IMG/VR virus record: IMGVR_UViG_3300045541_000131
Location: 32,001-96,000 of that record
Strand: one strand, 5' to 3'
Source of the DNA: a virus
Length of the DNA stretch: 64,000 nucleotides
The notes under the pieces are model-generated. The model did no database searches. It had not been told where the DNA came from and saw nothing but the letters and a program-made list of their open reading frames with translations. The translations under genes and the position numbers were made by a program. Below are positions 15,432-23,771 of this stretch, piece by piece (the stretch's first letter is position 1; each line of letters opens with the position of its first letter).

Positions 15432-16275
15432 AAAGATTTTGATTATGGGTTTACCCGGTGCCGGCAAGACTTATTTTGCTGAGCGTCTCAAAGCTTGGCT
15501 CGAACGCAACGGCGAAGCATCTGCAGAGCGTTTAAGTCAATACGAGATGTTACCCAGTGCTATGGAACTACGAGCAAAAGTAGATTGGTTCAATGCCGAT
15601 GATGTTCGCAGAAAATACAACGACTGGGACTTTAGTAAGGAAGGTCGTATTCGTCAAAGTTTACGTATGTTTGAATTTGCGCTTCGTTGTAGCGGCGAAT
15701 ATGTAATCTGTGACTTTGTTGCACCTTTGCCCGAAATGCGAGCAAACTTCAAAGCAGACTGGACAATTTGGATTGACACTATTGATGCAGGTCGTTATGA
15801 AGACACTAACAAAGCATTCGTAGCACCAGATGTCTATGACTTCCGCATCACTGAACAAAACGCAGAGAAGTGGGTAGAGTTTGTGGGTCAACATATCATT
15901 GAAGATCGCCGTAGACCAGTATTTGACTGGCGCAAAGAAACTGTACAGATGTTGGGTCGCTGGCAACCATGGCATCCAGGTCATCGTGCTTTGTTTGAGC
16001 GTAGTATTGCTAAAACAGGACAGGTTTGCATCATGATTCGCGATTGTCAAGGTTGGAATGGATCAAATCCTTTTGACTTTGAACAAGTAAAGAATTTTAT
16101 CAAGCGTGATTTAGATCCATTATATCAAGGCCAATATACTATTCAACTGGTGCCTAATATTGTAAACATCACTTATGGCAGAGATGTTGGCTATAAGATT
16201 GAACAAGAAGTGTTCGATGATGCCACACATGCTATCAGTGCTACAAAAATTCGTAAACAAATGGGCATAGAGTGA
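15424..16275 (+). CDS. cysC: Adenylyl-sulfate (APS) kinase-like domain fused to an HxGH nucleotidyltransferase domain
   Basis: GLPGAGKT, NADDVR, DFS.EGR and DFVAP motifs; C-terminal GRWQPWHPGH and ISAT.IR. Confidence 0.72.
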   Translation: MTKKILIMGLPGAGKTYFAERLKAWLERNGEASAERLSQYEMLPSAMELRAKVDWFNADDVRRKYNDWDFSKEGRIRQSLRMFEFALRCSGEYVICDFVAPLPEMRANFKADWTIWIDTIDAGRYEDTNKAFVAPDVYDFRITEQNAEKWVEFVGQHIIEDRRRPVFDWRKETVQMLGRWQPWHPGHRALFERSIAKTGQVCIMIRDCQGWNGSNPFDFEQVKNFIKRDLDPLYQGQYTIQLVPNIVNITYGRDVGYKIEQEVFDDATHAISATKIRKQMGIE

Positions 16276-16496
16276 ACAAGTATCACATTCGGTTTAATAC
16301 CAAACACGACGGCAGTGATTTAGTTTGGCGTATCTTTGAAAATGGTGTAGAACATCTAGCAACAGATGTTCGCATCATCGGCGAAACTTATACTGAATGC
16401 ACCGAAGAGCATGGCGAAACTAAGTGGAATATAGCCTGCAAAGGTCGTTTGGTATGGGTGGATAAGGTCGCTGTGATCGTTACCGGAAAAGATTAA
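16272..16496 (+). CDS. Hypothetical protein
   Basis: 74-aa ORF, translationally coupled on both sides. Confidence 0.6.
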   Translation: MNKYHIRFNTKHDGSDLVWRIFENGVEHLATDVRIIGETYTECTEEHGETKWNIACKGRLVWVDKVAVIVTGKD

Positions 16497-16699
16497 TGAA
16501 TGAATCTAATACTCGTAGTCTTGTAAAAACCGTAAGTTGGCGCTTGACTGGTTCGGGCGCCACTTTTTTGATTGCTTATCTTATATCAGGCAACTTAACT
16601 GTGGGCGGAACTATTGCTGTTATTCAGTTAGTGTCTAATACTATTTTATATTATATACACGAAAGAATTTGGAATCGTATTAATTGGGGTAAAAAATAA
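16496..16699 (+). CDS. Small membrane protein (DUF2061-like)
   Basis: RSLVKTVSWR...LYY.HERIW.RI.WG. Confidence 0.75.
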   Translation: MNESNTRSLVKTVSWRLTGSGATFLIAYLISGNLTVGGTIAVIQLVSNTILYYIHERIWNRINWGKK

Positions 16700-16707
16700 A
16701 TAGTTTA

Positions 16708-16806
16708 ACACCTTAGGACCGTTACTCAGTTATCTGAGCCTAAGGCGTCCGGCGGCTGCTGCCGGTGTTGCCCGGATTCGCTACCCTGAGGCGCACGAAG
16801 TGAGCA
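16708..16806 (+). ncRNA. Candidate structured RNA: three stems and a possible pseudoknot (family not recognised)
   Basis: GC-rich intergenic island after TAAATA (16697). Stems: CCTTAGG/CCTAAGG, CTCAG/CTGAG, CCGGCG/TGCCGG, GTGTTGCC/GGCGCAC. Loop TTCGCT is complementary to the AGTGAG tail. Confidence 0.6.
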
Positions 16807-16819
16807 TTTATTTTTGACT

Positions 16820-17374
16820 ATGAAAACAATTATACTTGTAGCATTACCCGAAGAACTAGACAGCAGTCTAGTTGATGTGCCCGTTGTTTATACAGGAGTG
16901 GGCATCAGCAATGCTGCTATGATGACCTATGATGCTATAATAGAGCATAGTCCAGACTTAGTCATCAACTATGGTAGCGCAGGTAGTTTGAAAAACTACA
17001 AAGGATTATTGCCTGTTAATCGTGTTTGCCAGCGTGATGCAGATTGTAGCCCGTTACGTGATCGTGGCTACATGTTAGGTGAAAATGTGTTATACTATCA
17101 TAGCGGCGAAGATGGTGTTTATTGCGGCAGTGGCAATAACTTTGTTACAAAGCCCGATACTTGGACGCTAAATCATTGCGATATTGTCGATATGGAACTT
17201 TGGAGCATAGCTAAAGTTTGCGAATACCACAATGTTCGGTGGATCAGCCGCAAATGGATCAGCGATAATGCTGATAGCGAAGCGGGAAACACATGGGAAA
17301 CAGCACTAGCAGCAGGTCAGCAAGAATTCATCAAATGGTTTAAGTCAGGTAAATATACTAATATCTGCCCTTAA
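16820..17374 (+). CDS. MTA/SAH nucleosidase-like protein (PNP/UDP family)
   Basis: VALPEE, YTGVG..NAA, VINYGSAG, VDME..IA and KWISDNAD motifs. Confidence 0.82.
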   Translation: MKTIILVALPEELDSSLVDVPVVYTGVGISNAAMMTYDAIIEHSPDLVINYGSAGSLKNYKGLLPVNRVCQRDADCSPLRDRGYMLGENVLYYHSGEDGVYCGSGNNFVTKPDTWTLNHCDIVDMELWSIAKVCEYHNVRWISRKWISDNADSEAGNTWETALAAGQQEFIKWFKSGKYTNICP

Positions 17375-17377
17375 ACT

Positions 17378-18658
17378 ATGAAAATCCAGCAATTAATCAC
17401 AGAAACAGTCGACGGTAAAAATCTCCATCTCGAGCATCTGGATGATGAGATTTGGAATCGTGGACATCAAGGTGCCGTTGAAGCACTACAATACTTAGAA
17501 GGTGCTGCTGGCTTATTGCTTGGATCTAGCGATCAAAAGTATTTTGCTACTAAAAAGTGGGATGGTAGCCCAGCATTGCTAGTAGGCACAGATCCCGAAA
17601 CTGGCGCTTTTGTTATGGGCGACAAAGGCATTTTTAGTGCAACAAAAGAAAACAGAATATACAAGGCCGGCGATGTAGATCGTGTAAAGCCTGACAAAGA
17701 AGTTAAAGGCCAGAAAGTAGATCGTAGTGATCTTAGAACTAAACTCAAAACAGCCTTTAACTACTTAAAAGACTTAAACTACGGCGACAAGATTTTACAA
17801 GGCGATTTGCTTTGGACACAAGGCGACGGTCAAAGCGGATTCCAAATGATCGACGGCGTTAACTATTGGACATTTACTCCTAACTTGTTAACTTATGCTG
17901 TTCCAGCCGACACACCTCTGGCACAGCGCATGAGCAAGGCTAAGGTGGGTATTGTGTTTCATACAACCTATGAAGGTGGTCCTACTCTTAAAAACATGTC
18001 GGCGAGATTTGGTGCTGACATCGGTGAAATAGGCAGCACACCTTATATCTATGTTCGTGATGCTACAATTAAAGATGTTAGCGGCAGCGTAACACTAACA
18101 CAACGCGAAAGCAACATGTTGGAAATGGCCGTTGCTGAATTATGGAACTACTTGTCGGCAATCGGTGAAGAAACATTTAAATGGTTAGAAAGTTCAGTGG
18201 CCGGGCATAGCCTACGAGACTTAATCAAGATAGACATTAACAAAATGGTTCGTGCTGGTGCCATGGATCAGCCAGAAGCGTATGTTCAGCAGTTCCTTAA
18301 GAGATTAGCTGAAAGATTGACTGCTGACATTGAAAAACTAAAGACACAAGCTGGTCAGGATCGCAAGCGTGCCGCACAAGAAGAAGCATTAAAATATATT
18401 CAGCAGCACACTGAAAGCATTGAAAATGTTTACTTGTTGTTCATTGGTATTCAGCGTGTTAAAGATGTTTTACAGAAACACTACGCAGCTATTCGTCAAA
18501 TAGATACATTTATTGCCAGACCAGATGGCAGCTTTGATGTTAAACCCGAAGAAGGTGTAGTCATTGTTGACCATTTAGGCAAAGGCGGCAAGGAAGCAGT
18601 TAAGATTGTAGACAGATTAGATTTCAGTCGCGAAAACTTTGAAAAGGCTCGAGGATGA
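17378..18658 (+). CDS. ATP-dependent ligase-fold protein (DUF6267-like) with capsid-targeting-like leader
   Basis: MKIQQLITE leader, NLHLEH, KWDG (KxDG motif I), QGDLL, EGVV and KIVDR.FS..NF. Confidence 0.65.
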   Translation: MKIQQLITETVDGKNLHLEHLDDEIWNRGHQGAVEALQYLEGAAGLLLGSSDQKYFATKKWDGSPALLVGTDPETGAFVMGDKGIFSATKENRIYKAGDVDRVKPDKEVKGQKVDRSDLRTKLKTAFNYLKDLNYGDKILQGDLLWTQGDGQSGFQMIDGVNYWTFTPNLLTYAVPADTPLAQRMSKAKVGIVFHTTYEGGPTLKNMSARFGADIGEIGSTPYIYVRDATIKDVSGSVTLTQRESNMLEMAVAELWNYLSAIGEETFKWLESSVAGHSLRDLIKIDINKMVRAGAMDQPEAYVQQFLKRLAERLTADIEKLKTQAGQDRKRAAQEEALKYIQQHTESIENVYLLFIGIQRVKDVLQKHYAAIRQIDTFIARPDGSFDVKPEEGVVIVDHLGKGGKEAVKIVDRLDFSRENFEKARG

Positions 18659-22342: not shown

Positions 22343-22527
22343 AAACAATACACTGGTTCTATTTTGTATCAGCTCTTTGCGTAACATTTTTCGCAGGCTT
22401 AGTCTTAGGCATGATTGCCATGCGAGATTTTATGGCCGAAGAATTTATTGTTATAGATCCTGAAAAACTTCAGCACTATCGTCAGATTCATGAACCTGTA
22501 AAAAAATCTCAAGGAATGACAGCATGA
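22339..22527 (+). CDS. Small membrane protein
   Basis: 62 aa with one N-terminal hydrophobic helix; ATGA overlaps at both ends. Confidence 0.55.
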   Translation: MKTIHWFYFVSALCVTFFAGLVLGMIAMRDFMAEEFIVIDPEKLQHYRQIHEPVKKSQGMTA

Positions 22528-23771
22528 GATTACTTGAATTAAAGCAAGGTCTGGGACTAACTATCTTCGACATCGACGATACGCTGTTTCACACCACCGC
22601 CGAAATTAAAGTAATTAAGAACGGGCAAATTGTTCGCAGTCTAAATAATCAAGAATTCAACAACTACGAATTACAACCCGGCGAGTCATTTGACTTTGGT
22701 GAATTCCGCAGTGCCGAAAAGTTTAATCGTGAAAGTAAACCTATTAGACCAATGATTGCCAAATTAAAAGCCATGCTAAAGAACGCCGGAGACAGCACAG
22801 TTATCATGCTGACTGCTCGTGCCGACTTTGACGATAAAGAAAAGTTTTTAAGCACATTTGAAAAGTATGGCATTGATATGAGTCGTGTTCATGTACATCG
22901 TGCTGGCAACTTGCCTGGAGATGATATACCTGCTGAAAAGAAAGCCGTATGGGTTCGTCGCTACTTAGACACTGGCAAGTATGGTCGTGTAAGATTATAT
23001 GATGACAGCAGAACAAACTTAAAGGTATTTAAAGCATTGGCGGCAGAATACCCCAATGTTGAGTTCGAAGCCTACTATGTTGATCCTAATGGTCAAGCCA
23101 TAGTTCATGAACAAGAAGTATTTGAAGATTACAGCACTATAGTTCAAACACTTAGAAAAGCTGGCTATCAAGAACTTGGATCAGGTGCTGATGCTACTGT
23201 ATGGACCAAAGATGCAGGAACTGTAATTAAAATTATTGTACCCGAAGACGAAGAATCTGAGTCGGATCAAGCAGTTGCTACATTTAAAAAGTTCTACGAG
23301 TTCTGTATGGCACACCAGGACATAGAATGTTTGCCTAAGTTTATTAAAATACAAGGTAGCCATTACGCAGAGTTTGAAATAAAAGGTCGAACATTTTTAC
23401 AAATTGCCATGGAACAATTATATCCCATAAAGAAGAATAGCTTCGAACAAGGTATAGTTTATGTATTCAGCGATTATGCTACTAAACGAATACCATGGCA
23501 ACGAGTTAAACAAGAACTCACTCTGCCAAAAACATGGCATGATACTGAATTCTTTGAAAGAAAAGCTAATGAATTCGCATTGAAAATATCCCAGTTGAAT
23601 GAATTAGATGAAGCAAAATTATCAGTGCTATACAATGTAATGGTATTGTTATATCACACTGGTAGAATAAACAAGATGGGTTGGGATTTACACACAGAAA
23701 ATGCCATGCTAAGACGAGATGGCACTATAGTTATTATTGATCCGTGGTTCAATATAGAGGATGGTGTATGA
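22524..23771 (+). CDS. HAD phosphatase fused to a protein-kinase-like (APH/ePK) domain
   Basis: HAD motifs FDIDDTL, LTAR, K and LYDDS..N; kinase motifs LGSGADATV, VIKI, MEQL, WDLH.EN.M and IIDP. Confidence 0.78.
   Translation: MRLLELKQGLGLTIFDIDDTLFHTTAEIKVIKNGQIVRSLNNQEFNNYELQPGESFDFGEFRSAEKFNRESKPIRPMIAKLKAMLKNAGDSTVIMLTARADFDDKEKFLSTFEKYGIDMSRVHVHRAGNLPGDDIPAEKKAVWVRRYLDTGKYGRVRLYDDSRTNLKVFKALAAEYPNVEFEAYYVDPNGQAIVHEQEVFEDYSTIVQTLRKAGYQELGSGADATVWTKDAGTVIKIIVPEDEESESDQAVATFKKFYEFCMAHQDIECLPKFIKIQGSHYAEFEIKGRTFLQIAMEQLYPIKKNSFEQGIVYVFSDYATKRIPWQRVKQELTLPKTWHDTEFFERKANEFALKISQLNELDEAKLSVLYNVMVLLYHTGRINKMGWDLHTENAMLRRDGTIVIIDPWFNIEDGV

Follow-up and report, generated by a model that had tools for sequence, protein, structure and literature searches.

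A phage-borne family of structured RNAs with conserved segments complementary to the helix 69 region of bacterial 23S rRNA

An intergenic element of roughly 100 bases within a 64,000-nucleotide stretch of viral DNA (the window; positions 32,001 to 96,000 of IMG/VR record IMGVR_UViG_3300045541_000131) provides a candidate for a viral RNA that addresses the host ribosome through its large-subunit ribosomal RNA (rRNA). The element carries two segments that together are complementary to residues 1917-1937 of Escherichia coli 23S rRNA. Judged by its conservation, it is a real, covarying + strand RNA of a large and uncatalogued phage-borne family. On a slender balance of probability we favour a model in which it functions as a phage small RNA, or as a processed 3' tail, which base-pairs with host 23S rRNA via the two displayed segments. 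The complementarity is, in our assessment, the decisive feature of the element. It was absent from the original prediction, which was made from the letters of this DNA and offered a phage small RNA, a ribozyme or a riboswitch for a ligand of the S-adenosylmethionine (SAM) cycle or a purine.

The reverse complement of the window element is identical to E. coli 23S rRNA over residues 1917-1931 (15 nucleotides (nt), exact) and again over 1929-1937 (9 nt, exact). The segment ACCUUAGGACCGUUA in the 5' domain can pair with the former and UUCGCUACC, in the loop of the third hairpin (P3), with the latter, and the two target stretches are contiguous and overlapping. The annotated rrnH operon of E. coli K-12 served as reference, with the structure of the target taken from the Rfam large-subunit rRNA (LSU) model aligned to the region. 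Complemented are the final two loop bases of helix 69 and its 3' strand, the one-pair element C1925-G1929 and the unpaired GUAGC of 1930-1934, continuing through 1937, in a junction that leads to helices 70 and 71. This target is nearly invariant, all of its positions being upper case in the bacterial LSU consensus except u1923. The predicted duplex of the 5' segment has an energy of -25.8 kcal/mol, a value which none of 200 shuffled loops reaches anywhere in 23S rRNA. The best 23S site for the P3 loop directly abuts this first target. In a simple co-folding of the element and 23S 1900-1945, the heteroduplex is favoured by about 15 kcal/mol after both partners have been unfolded.

At least about 200 virus contigs of IMG/VR carry a relative of the element, as does one cultured phage. 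They were collected by two pattern scans of viral contigs. The first scan used the 15-base 5' motif and gave at least 120 loci, representing 99 distinct sequences, while the second, with only part of the second hairpin (P2) and the P3 loop fixed, also gave at least 120 loci. Nearly all of the second-scan matches listed carry the 5' core, though it was unspecified in the pattern. Conversely, the P3 loop of the window's type is present in 13 of the 99 distinct first-scan matches, a scan that was independent of the loop. Elements of the window's kind (type I) from the second scan were combined with loci found earlier to give 91 distinct sequences and, with locus L003 (a near-duplicate of L002) and one row with a coordinate error left out, an alignment of 89 rows (A4). 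By class, the 99 distinct first-scan sequences listed divide into 46 of class B, 13 of type I, 10 of type II, 3 of type III, 7 long or other forms, 1 other and 19 without further likeness by the rules used, part of which constitute yet another class. A near-identical relative of the window element lies at L039, on the same contig as L007, where one base differs across the element and another gene stands downstream. The same pattern as in the second scan was run on 185,579 bacterial and archaeal species genomes and returned at least 122 matches, which we estimate to be about the number expected by chance; the 5' motif was in none of those listed. Among the matches listed, the family therefore appears to be phage-specific. 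Comparison with cultured phages by blastn gave no match for the window region and none for class B, and the type II query identified Limnohabitans phage DC31, the only cultured phage found.

No Rfam family accounts for these elements. Rfam 15 at the gathering score yielded no match in the whole 64 kb window, and none was found at E-values (E) up to 10 on 16600-16900, ribozyme and riboswitch models included; in L145, the long-class member of phage DC31, Rfam matched only transfer RNA (tRNA). The Rfam search proposed with the original prediction places the element outside every Rfam 15 family. Its suggestion of a phage small RNA is borne out to the extent that the element is conserved, covaries, reads on the + strand and is shared by this many viruses, whereas its suggestion of a ribozyme finds no Rfam model even at that permissive threshold.

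In class B (L025, L027 and about 44 other loci, for example L027:3340-3500) the 5' domain is shared, the complement of 23S 1917-1931 being followed by GGCGUC, but the 3' half is different. At its end stand a hairpin with loop AUAAAGUAAG, a UUCG hairpin that resembles a terminator, and a ribosome-binding site, in this order. The class B element nearly always lies between a gene for a regA-type translational regulator (in 26 loci) and one for hsp20 (in 40 loci). Members of the long class (L145:2499-2690 of Limnohabitans phage DC31, L094 and L092) extend to about 190 nt and have the same 5' domain. A further class (L034, L038, L066, L080, L108 and L128) presents the same 5' motif in a loop closed by ACACAC/GUGUGU, followed by GGAGGCCCCUGCC and a tail, AAGUGGGG; a lysozyme/chitinase-like gene lies downstream in five of these loci.

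Across the 89 members of A4 the 5' region, which the search pattern left free, always contains an exact antisense match to 23S rRNA, of 8-15 nt (median 12), always centred on 1921-1930. The 23S spans are 1920-1931 (n=31), 1920-1930 (n=24), 1917-1931 (n=12), 1921-1933 (n=6) and others (n=16). Lineages that lose complementarity on one side gain it on the other, and always along the 23S sequence. The P3 loop has an antisense match of 8-11 nt in all 89, the loop being part of the search pattern. Where core bases have changed, the change is a transition that leaves a wobble pair: L163 has A replaced by G opposite U1926, and class B and type II have G opposite U1923. Tracking of host variation at 1923 was considered for the latter, given the lower-case u in the consensus, and rejected: in the species genomes only 7 loci have the 20-nt target in its C1923 form, and because it is so rare the G variant is better read as a G-U wobble. 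Taken together, we read this pattern as suggesting that selection acts on the pairing itself, not only on the motif.

Complementarity to adjacent strands of that 23S rRNA domain is found in some lineages. Three distinct members (L076, L114 and L117) carry CACCGGGCAGGCGUC, the complement of 23S 1828-1842 (15 nt), right after the antisense helix 69 hairpin, and their 5' domain is colinear with antisense 23S 1828-1931 except that helix 68 is missing and the loop of helix 69 differs. Type II loops contain UUACGCCA, the complement of 1971-1978, or, in L049 and four others, the complement of 1969-1976. As residues 1830-1833 pair with 1972-1975 in the Rfam LSU consensus, next to helices 68-71, the two kinds of complement are also able to form a helix within the phage RNA itself, which makes these matches ambiguous. 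The P2 block GCGGCUGCUG (16750-16764) contains an exact 10-base complement of 16S 519-528, and 52 of 200 shuffles pair as well. Its alternative partner, 23S 1902-1911 in the helix 69 5' strand, involves three G-U pairs and is not significant by shuffling. Neither the 16S 530 loop nor this 23S site, an equally possible partner, is counted as support. No significant rRNA partner was found for the tail, AAGUGAGC.

Covariation supports the P2 and P3 hairpins strongly, as the original prediction had proposed to examine. Among the 89 distinct members, 93.1% of P2 and P3 cells are paired compared with 74.1% in shuffles, 235 cells are changed on both sides compared with 78, and the covariation score is 0.519 compared with 0.158; none of 500 shuffles reaches the observed value in any of these measures, and slid controls score at most 0.148. 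Six pairs of P3 are each double-changed in 13-49 of the 89 sequences. The closing pair of P2 is GC in 39, AU in 26, GU in 16 and CG in 7, while the inner P2 pairs, one of them a conserved G-U, never vary; in type III, P2 takes the form CCCGG...CUGGG. The first helix, P1, is kept as drawn only in the window's subtype (L007/L039, L163, L002 with 6 pairs, and L223), L163 having CCTTGGG with CCTAAGG and one G-U pair, and in most members it is closed by other flanking bases with the CCUUAGGACC core in the loop. The minimal form, in L152 and relatives, is a four-pair stem with a 12-base loop that is almost wholly complement.

A pseudoknot proposed between TTCGCT of the P3 loop and AGTGAG of the tail did not survive comparison. 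The tail AAGUGAGC is unchanged in 10 distinct type II members with a different P3 loop, and in four type I members it has changed (AAACGAGC in three, AAAGCAGC in one) beneath an unchanged loop, the latter being a weak test as the loop was fixed by the search pattern. With an invariant tail and a loop that differs between types, the pseudoknot was rejected as a feature of the family.

The covarying stems also bear on the strand. G-U exceeds A-C by 20 to 1 in the three loop-proximal pairs of P3 and by 16 to 0 in the P2 closing pair, so the - strand would have mismatches where the + strand has wobbles. The + strand has the more stable fold in 24 of the 29 members of class A, and the 5 exceptions include the window element and its twin. 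The element is co-directional with the nearest upstream open reading frame (ORF) in 97 of 104 loci and with the nearest downstream ORF in 83 of 103. From gene orientation and the stem counts we therefore conclude that the functional RNA is, in all likelihood, the + strand.

These observations lead to a molecular model, conditional at each step. As in trans-acting base-pairing small RNAs, the element has a conserved single-stranded seed complementary to a putative target. The element would be transcribed from the + strand, probably as the tail of an upstream unit or as a processed stable RNA. P1, the invariant P2 and the variable P3 would together form a scaffold that displays two single-stranded segments complementary to 23S 1917-1937. 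Pairing would occur while these residues are not locked in the finished 70S ribosome; because helix 69 is closed in finished ribosomes, it is expected on nascent or late-assembly 23S rRNA or on free 50S subunits. One possible outcome is that domain IV folding and subunit joining would be blocked. Alternatively, the entry cut of RNase E after residue 1942 might be steered or shielded, and so either promoted or prevented. In E. coli one RNase E cleavage, after residue 1942, initiates 23S rRNA decay in quality control as well as in starvation, with subunit interfaces exposed (PMC4931109). The complementary stretch ends at 1937, 5 nt short of this cut. Pairing with 23S rRNA inside the cell, and the effect it would have, are what we infer from the complementarity.

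A stronger form of the model, which we regard as unlikely, would have the RNA act as a guide, clamping 23S 1917-1937 with its two loops and directing an enzyme, of the host or of the phage, to take host ribosomes apart, block them or remodel them. RNase E, at its natural entry site after 1942, would be the most concrete candidate. A box C/D reading was rejected: CUGA lies no more than 2 nt downstream of the loop in 8 of 89 members, one of them the window element, but is not conserved, and RUGAUGA is present in none of the 89. Nor is an H/ACA arrangement seen, the two guides lying in separate hairpins rather than in one internal-loop pocket.

Several points weigh against 23S pairing as the function of the element. 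Both virus scans fix part of the sequence by design, and the family counts are counts among the matches listed. The E. coli rRNA is a stand-in for that of the phage hosts. The P3-loop duplex has a predicted energy of -14.4 kcal/mol, which 15 of 200 shuffles match somewhere in 23S rRNA, so that alone it is not significant and the weight of the P3-loop match lies in its adjacency to the first target. More generally, 8-base rRNA matches are at chance, with 726 antisense and 698 sense matches in 103 distinct elements; apparent rRNA matches in class B loops were dropped for the same reason, as 8-mers are equally frequent in sense and antisense. On the side of the phage RNA, 7 of the 15 complementary bases are held in P1 in the window's subtype, leaving ACCGUUA free. 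On the side of the ribosome, 1920-1924 is paired within helix 69 in the LSU consensus for the finished particle, and pairing therefore needs an unfolded or breathing target. The loops would bind in permuted order, the 5' loop on the 5' part of the target, and overlap at 1929-1931, from which it follows that simultaneous binding of both would need an unusual junction. The P2 block, the tail and the first A of the P3 loop are invariant and have no rRNA partner, hence something besides 23S pairing must also be selected. Finally, folding of the single window sequence favours the - strand (z = -3.18); the + strand, at z = -1.59 with 13 of 200 shuffles as stable, is not beyond chance.

The genomic setting of the family suits a stable RNA or a 3' tail, and it also bears on the rival readings. 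The element often starts 3-8 bases past the upstream stop codon. A sigma-70-like promoter (TTGAC, 17-20 bases, TAnnnT; for example L118:1786-1830) follows the AAGUGAGC tail in 22 of 118 distinct members listed, compared with 2 of 454 control windows, and begins 8-9 bases past the tail in 21 of them and 6 bases past it in 1. As the promoter-like site comes after the element, these 22 elements end the upstream unit and lie outside the transcript of the next gene, and element and promoter may travel as one cassette. In phage DC31 the element (L145) begins only a few bases beyond a cluster of five tRNA genes, which it follows on the same strand, and is unannotated in the GenBank record; a tRNA precedes the long-class member of L094 by 6 bases, and six tRNAs precede that of L092 by 280 bases. 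This position suggests that the long class may be processed. The flanking genes are auxiliary genes typical of large aquatic phages (PstS-like, DctP, TctC, TauD, desaturase, reductase, radical SAM). Those downstream are unrelated across the family and include hsp20, FNR-like reductase, PstS-like, DctP, TauD, desaturase and others.

Two alternatives keep the 23S complementarity and interpret it differently. The element might remain within the phage mRNA, in an intergenic or 3' untranslated region, and act in cis as a ribosome tether, which we judge to be rather unlikely. It would keep a 50S subunit, or a ribosome that is terminating, attached to that mRNA and so favour the re-use of ribosomes along the polycistronic transcript. 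Its placement just past an upstream stop in many loci is suited to such a role, as are the co-directional ORF usually found within about 150 bases downstream, the lack of a Shine-Dalgarno sequence at the window's downstream gene, and the precedent of eukaryotic viral RNA elements complementary to rRNA. However, long-class members follow tRNA genes rather than ORFs, the promoter-like site separates 22 of 118 members from the next gene, the complement is to large-subunit RNA, which does not choose start sites, and in a translating ribosome helix 69 lies buried at the interface. It is also possible, though we give it a distinctly small chance, that the loops bind protein or make contacts within the RNA, and that their antisense likeness to 23S rRNA is a relic of a captured, inverted piece of a host rRNA gene with no pairing function. 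The colinear 5' domain of L076, L114 and L117, with its deleted helix 68 and altered helix 69 loop, would be in keeping with such a capture; GGCGU/ACGCC of type II can pair within the element as their complements do in 23S rRNA; and P2 and the tail are invariant with no significant rRNA partner. A relic would be expected to decay evenly, yet in this family variation is free in the stems and absent from the complementary loops. Moreover, lineages extend the match in either direction exactly along 23S rRNA, and the P3 loop is not colinear with the rest.

The remaining alternatives make no use of pairing with host rRNA. A cis-regulatory leader of the downstream nucleosidase-family gene, as in the riboswitch first suggested, seems extremely improbable. 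In its favour, 10 bases separate the end of the element from the start codon, ATG, of a gene that lacks a Shine-Dalgarno sequence, and L013 has the same arrangement. A protein search of viral contigs gave 22 loci of this gene family, however, and in the 21 whose 200 upstream bases were read the element lies directly upstream in only 1 (L013). In six further loci (L002, L004, L005, L007, L015 and L016) it is 0.9-2 kb upstream with another gene between, which in L004, L005, L007 and L015 is an FNR-like reductase whose stop codon overlaps the nucleosidase-family ATG; this reductase gene is absent in the window and in L013, where the element abuts the nucleosidase gene. The constancy of the downstream gene had been proposed as a means of telling a cis element from a small RNA, and across the family this gene is variable. 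The window also shows no expression platform, with no sequestrable Shine-Dalgarno before the downstream gene and no terminator-like site between element and gene, and Rfam gives no riboswitch match; with the promoter-like sites that follow the element in 22 of 118 members, these results do not sustain the riboswitch. Class B does have a terminator-like hairpin and a ribosome-binding site, without the window's 3' domain. Overall the downstream ORF does not appear to be tied functionally to the element. Should the - strand instead be the functional one, it might form a miniature mimic of 23S domain IV that decoys an rRNA-recognising protein or nuclease. The better fold of the window's - strand and the sense rRNA sequence that its loops would carry are consistent with this, but orientation follows the flanking genes (97/104 and 83/103 loci), the wobble counts (20 to 1 and 16 to 0) and relative stability (24/29) point to the + strand, and the loop of helix 69, in which the function of that helix resides, is not preserved; we consider a decoy highly improbable. 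Finally, a self-cleaving ribozyme, or a DNA-level cassette in the form of a recombination or regulatory module travelling with an early promoter, would explain the sharp conserved borders (GAAC... and ...AAGUGAGC), the fixed 8-9 base spacing of the promoter-like site in 22 of 118 members and the occupation of different sites in related phages. Against it, no ribozyme model matches, a single copy is present in 138.6 kb, and RNA-type covariation with G-U pairs is unexpected for a DNA site, which makes this very unlikely.

The window derives from a 138.6 kb IMG/VR virus, a large lake phage, that CheckV rates as 33% complete, and encodes a family B DNA polymerase and other phage genes. Its element occupies non-coding sequence (16700-16819) between two + strand ORFs, and the features are collected in Table 1. 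All helices drawn in the original prediction are present, with the letters and at the coordinates it gave, and its further remarks on a GC-rich stretch in AT-rich surroundings (G+C of 0.57 at 16700-16799 compared with 0.29-0.46 on the flanks) and on the lack of an obvious Shine-Dalgarno before the downstream gene (for the ATG at 16820) hold as well. No other copy of the element was found in the 138.6 kb record, ARAGORN identified no tRNA or transfer-messenger RNA gene in the window, no RNA run with this region was found among the sequencing runs listed, and no promoter-like or terminator-like site was found on the + strand at the element (terminator check 16700-16820). A terminator-like hairpin with a T run, the sole such site in 16000-17500, lies on the + strand at 16538-16562, within the DUF2061 ORF. 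Elsewhere in the window, a single ORF (22524-23771) has matches to phrog_415, a polynucleotide kinase family, and to phrog_15752, a protein kinase family whose annotation gives inhibition of host transcription and modulation of RNase III and RNase E.

Table 1. Positions in the window of the RNA element, its structural parts and the adjoining ORFs.
Feature	Position	Strand	Remarks
Whole RNA element	16705-16812	+	Family-conserved span 16705..16809, from bases before P1 through AAGUGAGC tail and U-rich stretch; alignments A3, A4
Upstream ORF, DUF2061 membrane protein	16496..16699	+	E 8.8e-22; stop codon 6 bases before element
Downstream ORF, Pfam superfamily PNP_UDP_1 (nucleoside phosphorylase or nucleosidase; MTA/SAH nucleosidase in original prediction)	16820..17374	+	E 3e-13; ATG at 16820
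P1	CCTTAGG 16711-16717 with CCTAAGG 16739-16745	+	Minimum-free-energy fold
P1a, inner hairpin inside P1	CTCAG 16725-16729 with CTGAG 16734-16738	+	Minimum-free-energy fold
Bulge ACCGTTA	16718-16724	+	Free, 7 nt
5' antisense segment ACCUUAGGACCGUUA	16710..16724	+	Exact complement of E. coli 23S 1917-1931; 16711-16717 paired in P1, 16718-16724 free bulge
P2 hairpin CGGCGG-CUG-CUGCCG	16750-16755 with 16759-16764	+	Nearly invariant 13-nt block GGCGGCUGCUGCC
P3 hairpin, variable covarying stem	16765-16775 with 16786-16796	+	Six pairs double-changed among relatives
P3 loop AUUCGCUACC	16776..16785	+	UUCGCUACC (16777-16785) is exact complement of 23S 1929-1937
TTCGCT of P3 loop	16777-16782	+	Letters as in original prediction
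AGTGAG of tail	16799-16804	+	Letters as in original prediction
3' tail AAGUGAGC, then U-rich sequence	16798..16805	+	Invariant or nearly so in A3 and A4

The helix 69 region joins the two ribosomal subunits and is one of the most conserved stretches of the ribosome, and it is this region that the family's only sequence-invariant exposed parts complement. If the pairing proposed here is real, it would represent a new viral route onto host translation, and as the target hardly varies the same RNA could work across very different hosts. It would also provide a natural ligand for studying helix 69 accessibility, late 50S assembly and the start of ribosome decay. Were the guide-like form of the model true, the family would be a viral counterpart, in the bacterial world, of rRNA guide RNAs, with broad-host-range action on the ribosome by RNA alone. 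The member in cultured phage DC31, together with an E. coli 23S rRNA identical to the complemented target over the 21 nt of 1917-1937, makes the system experimentally accessible. We know of no base-pairing small RNA, cellular or viral, described in bacteria as targeting rRNA itself, and a literature search at the level of titles and abstracts, which could pass over an unindexed mention, found no published description of a phage RNA complementary to 23S rRNA. We accordingly rate the element as a putative base-pairing RNA with an unprecedented class of target.

In architecture the phage RNA is reminiscent of CopA/CopT of plasmid R1, RNA I/RNA II of ColE1 and OxyS-fhlA, which likewise present short complements in loops or bulges on a stable scaffold and set two loops on one target. 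The presumed target here is instead a universally conserved stretch of host 23S rRNA rather than an mRNA or a replication primer, and the RNA is virus-encoded and would act in trans, by a pairing that is predicted. The box C/D, H/ACA and U3 guides of archaea and eukaryotes are likewise small RNAs that pair with conserved functional rRNA centres via a two-part guide, but the phage family has no conserved C/D boxes, and its guides are split between two hairpins, in permuted order, instead of sharing a pocket. To our knowledge, bacteria do not use rRNA guides of the box C/D or H/ACA type. Small RNA-directed cleavage by RNase E of the MicC-ompD type offers another parallel, as the phage complement ends at 1937, five bases before the natural RNase E entry site; the paired end of the phage RNA is, however, inside a loop and not a free 5' end. 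Rfam phage motifs and self-cleaving ribozymes are likewise intergenic, structured and phage-borne, but no family among them matches. The rRNA-complementary elements of eukaryotic viruses and the ribosome-associated non-coding RNAs are likewise in contact with the ribosome by way of its RNA. Their action is on the small subunit or in cis, whereas the phage RNA complements a strand of the large-subunit interface.

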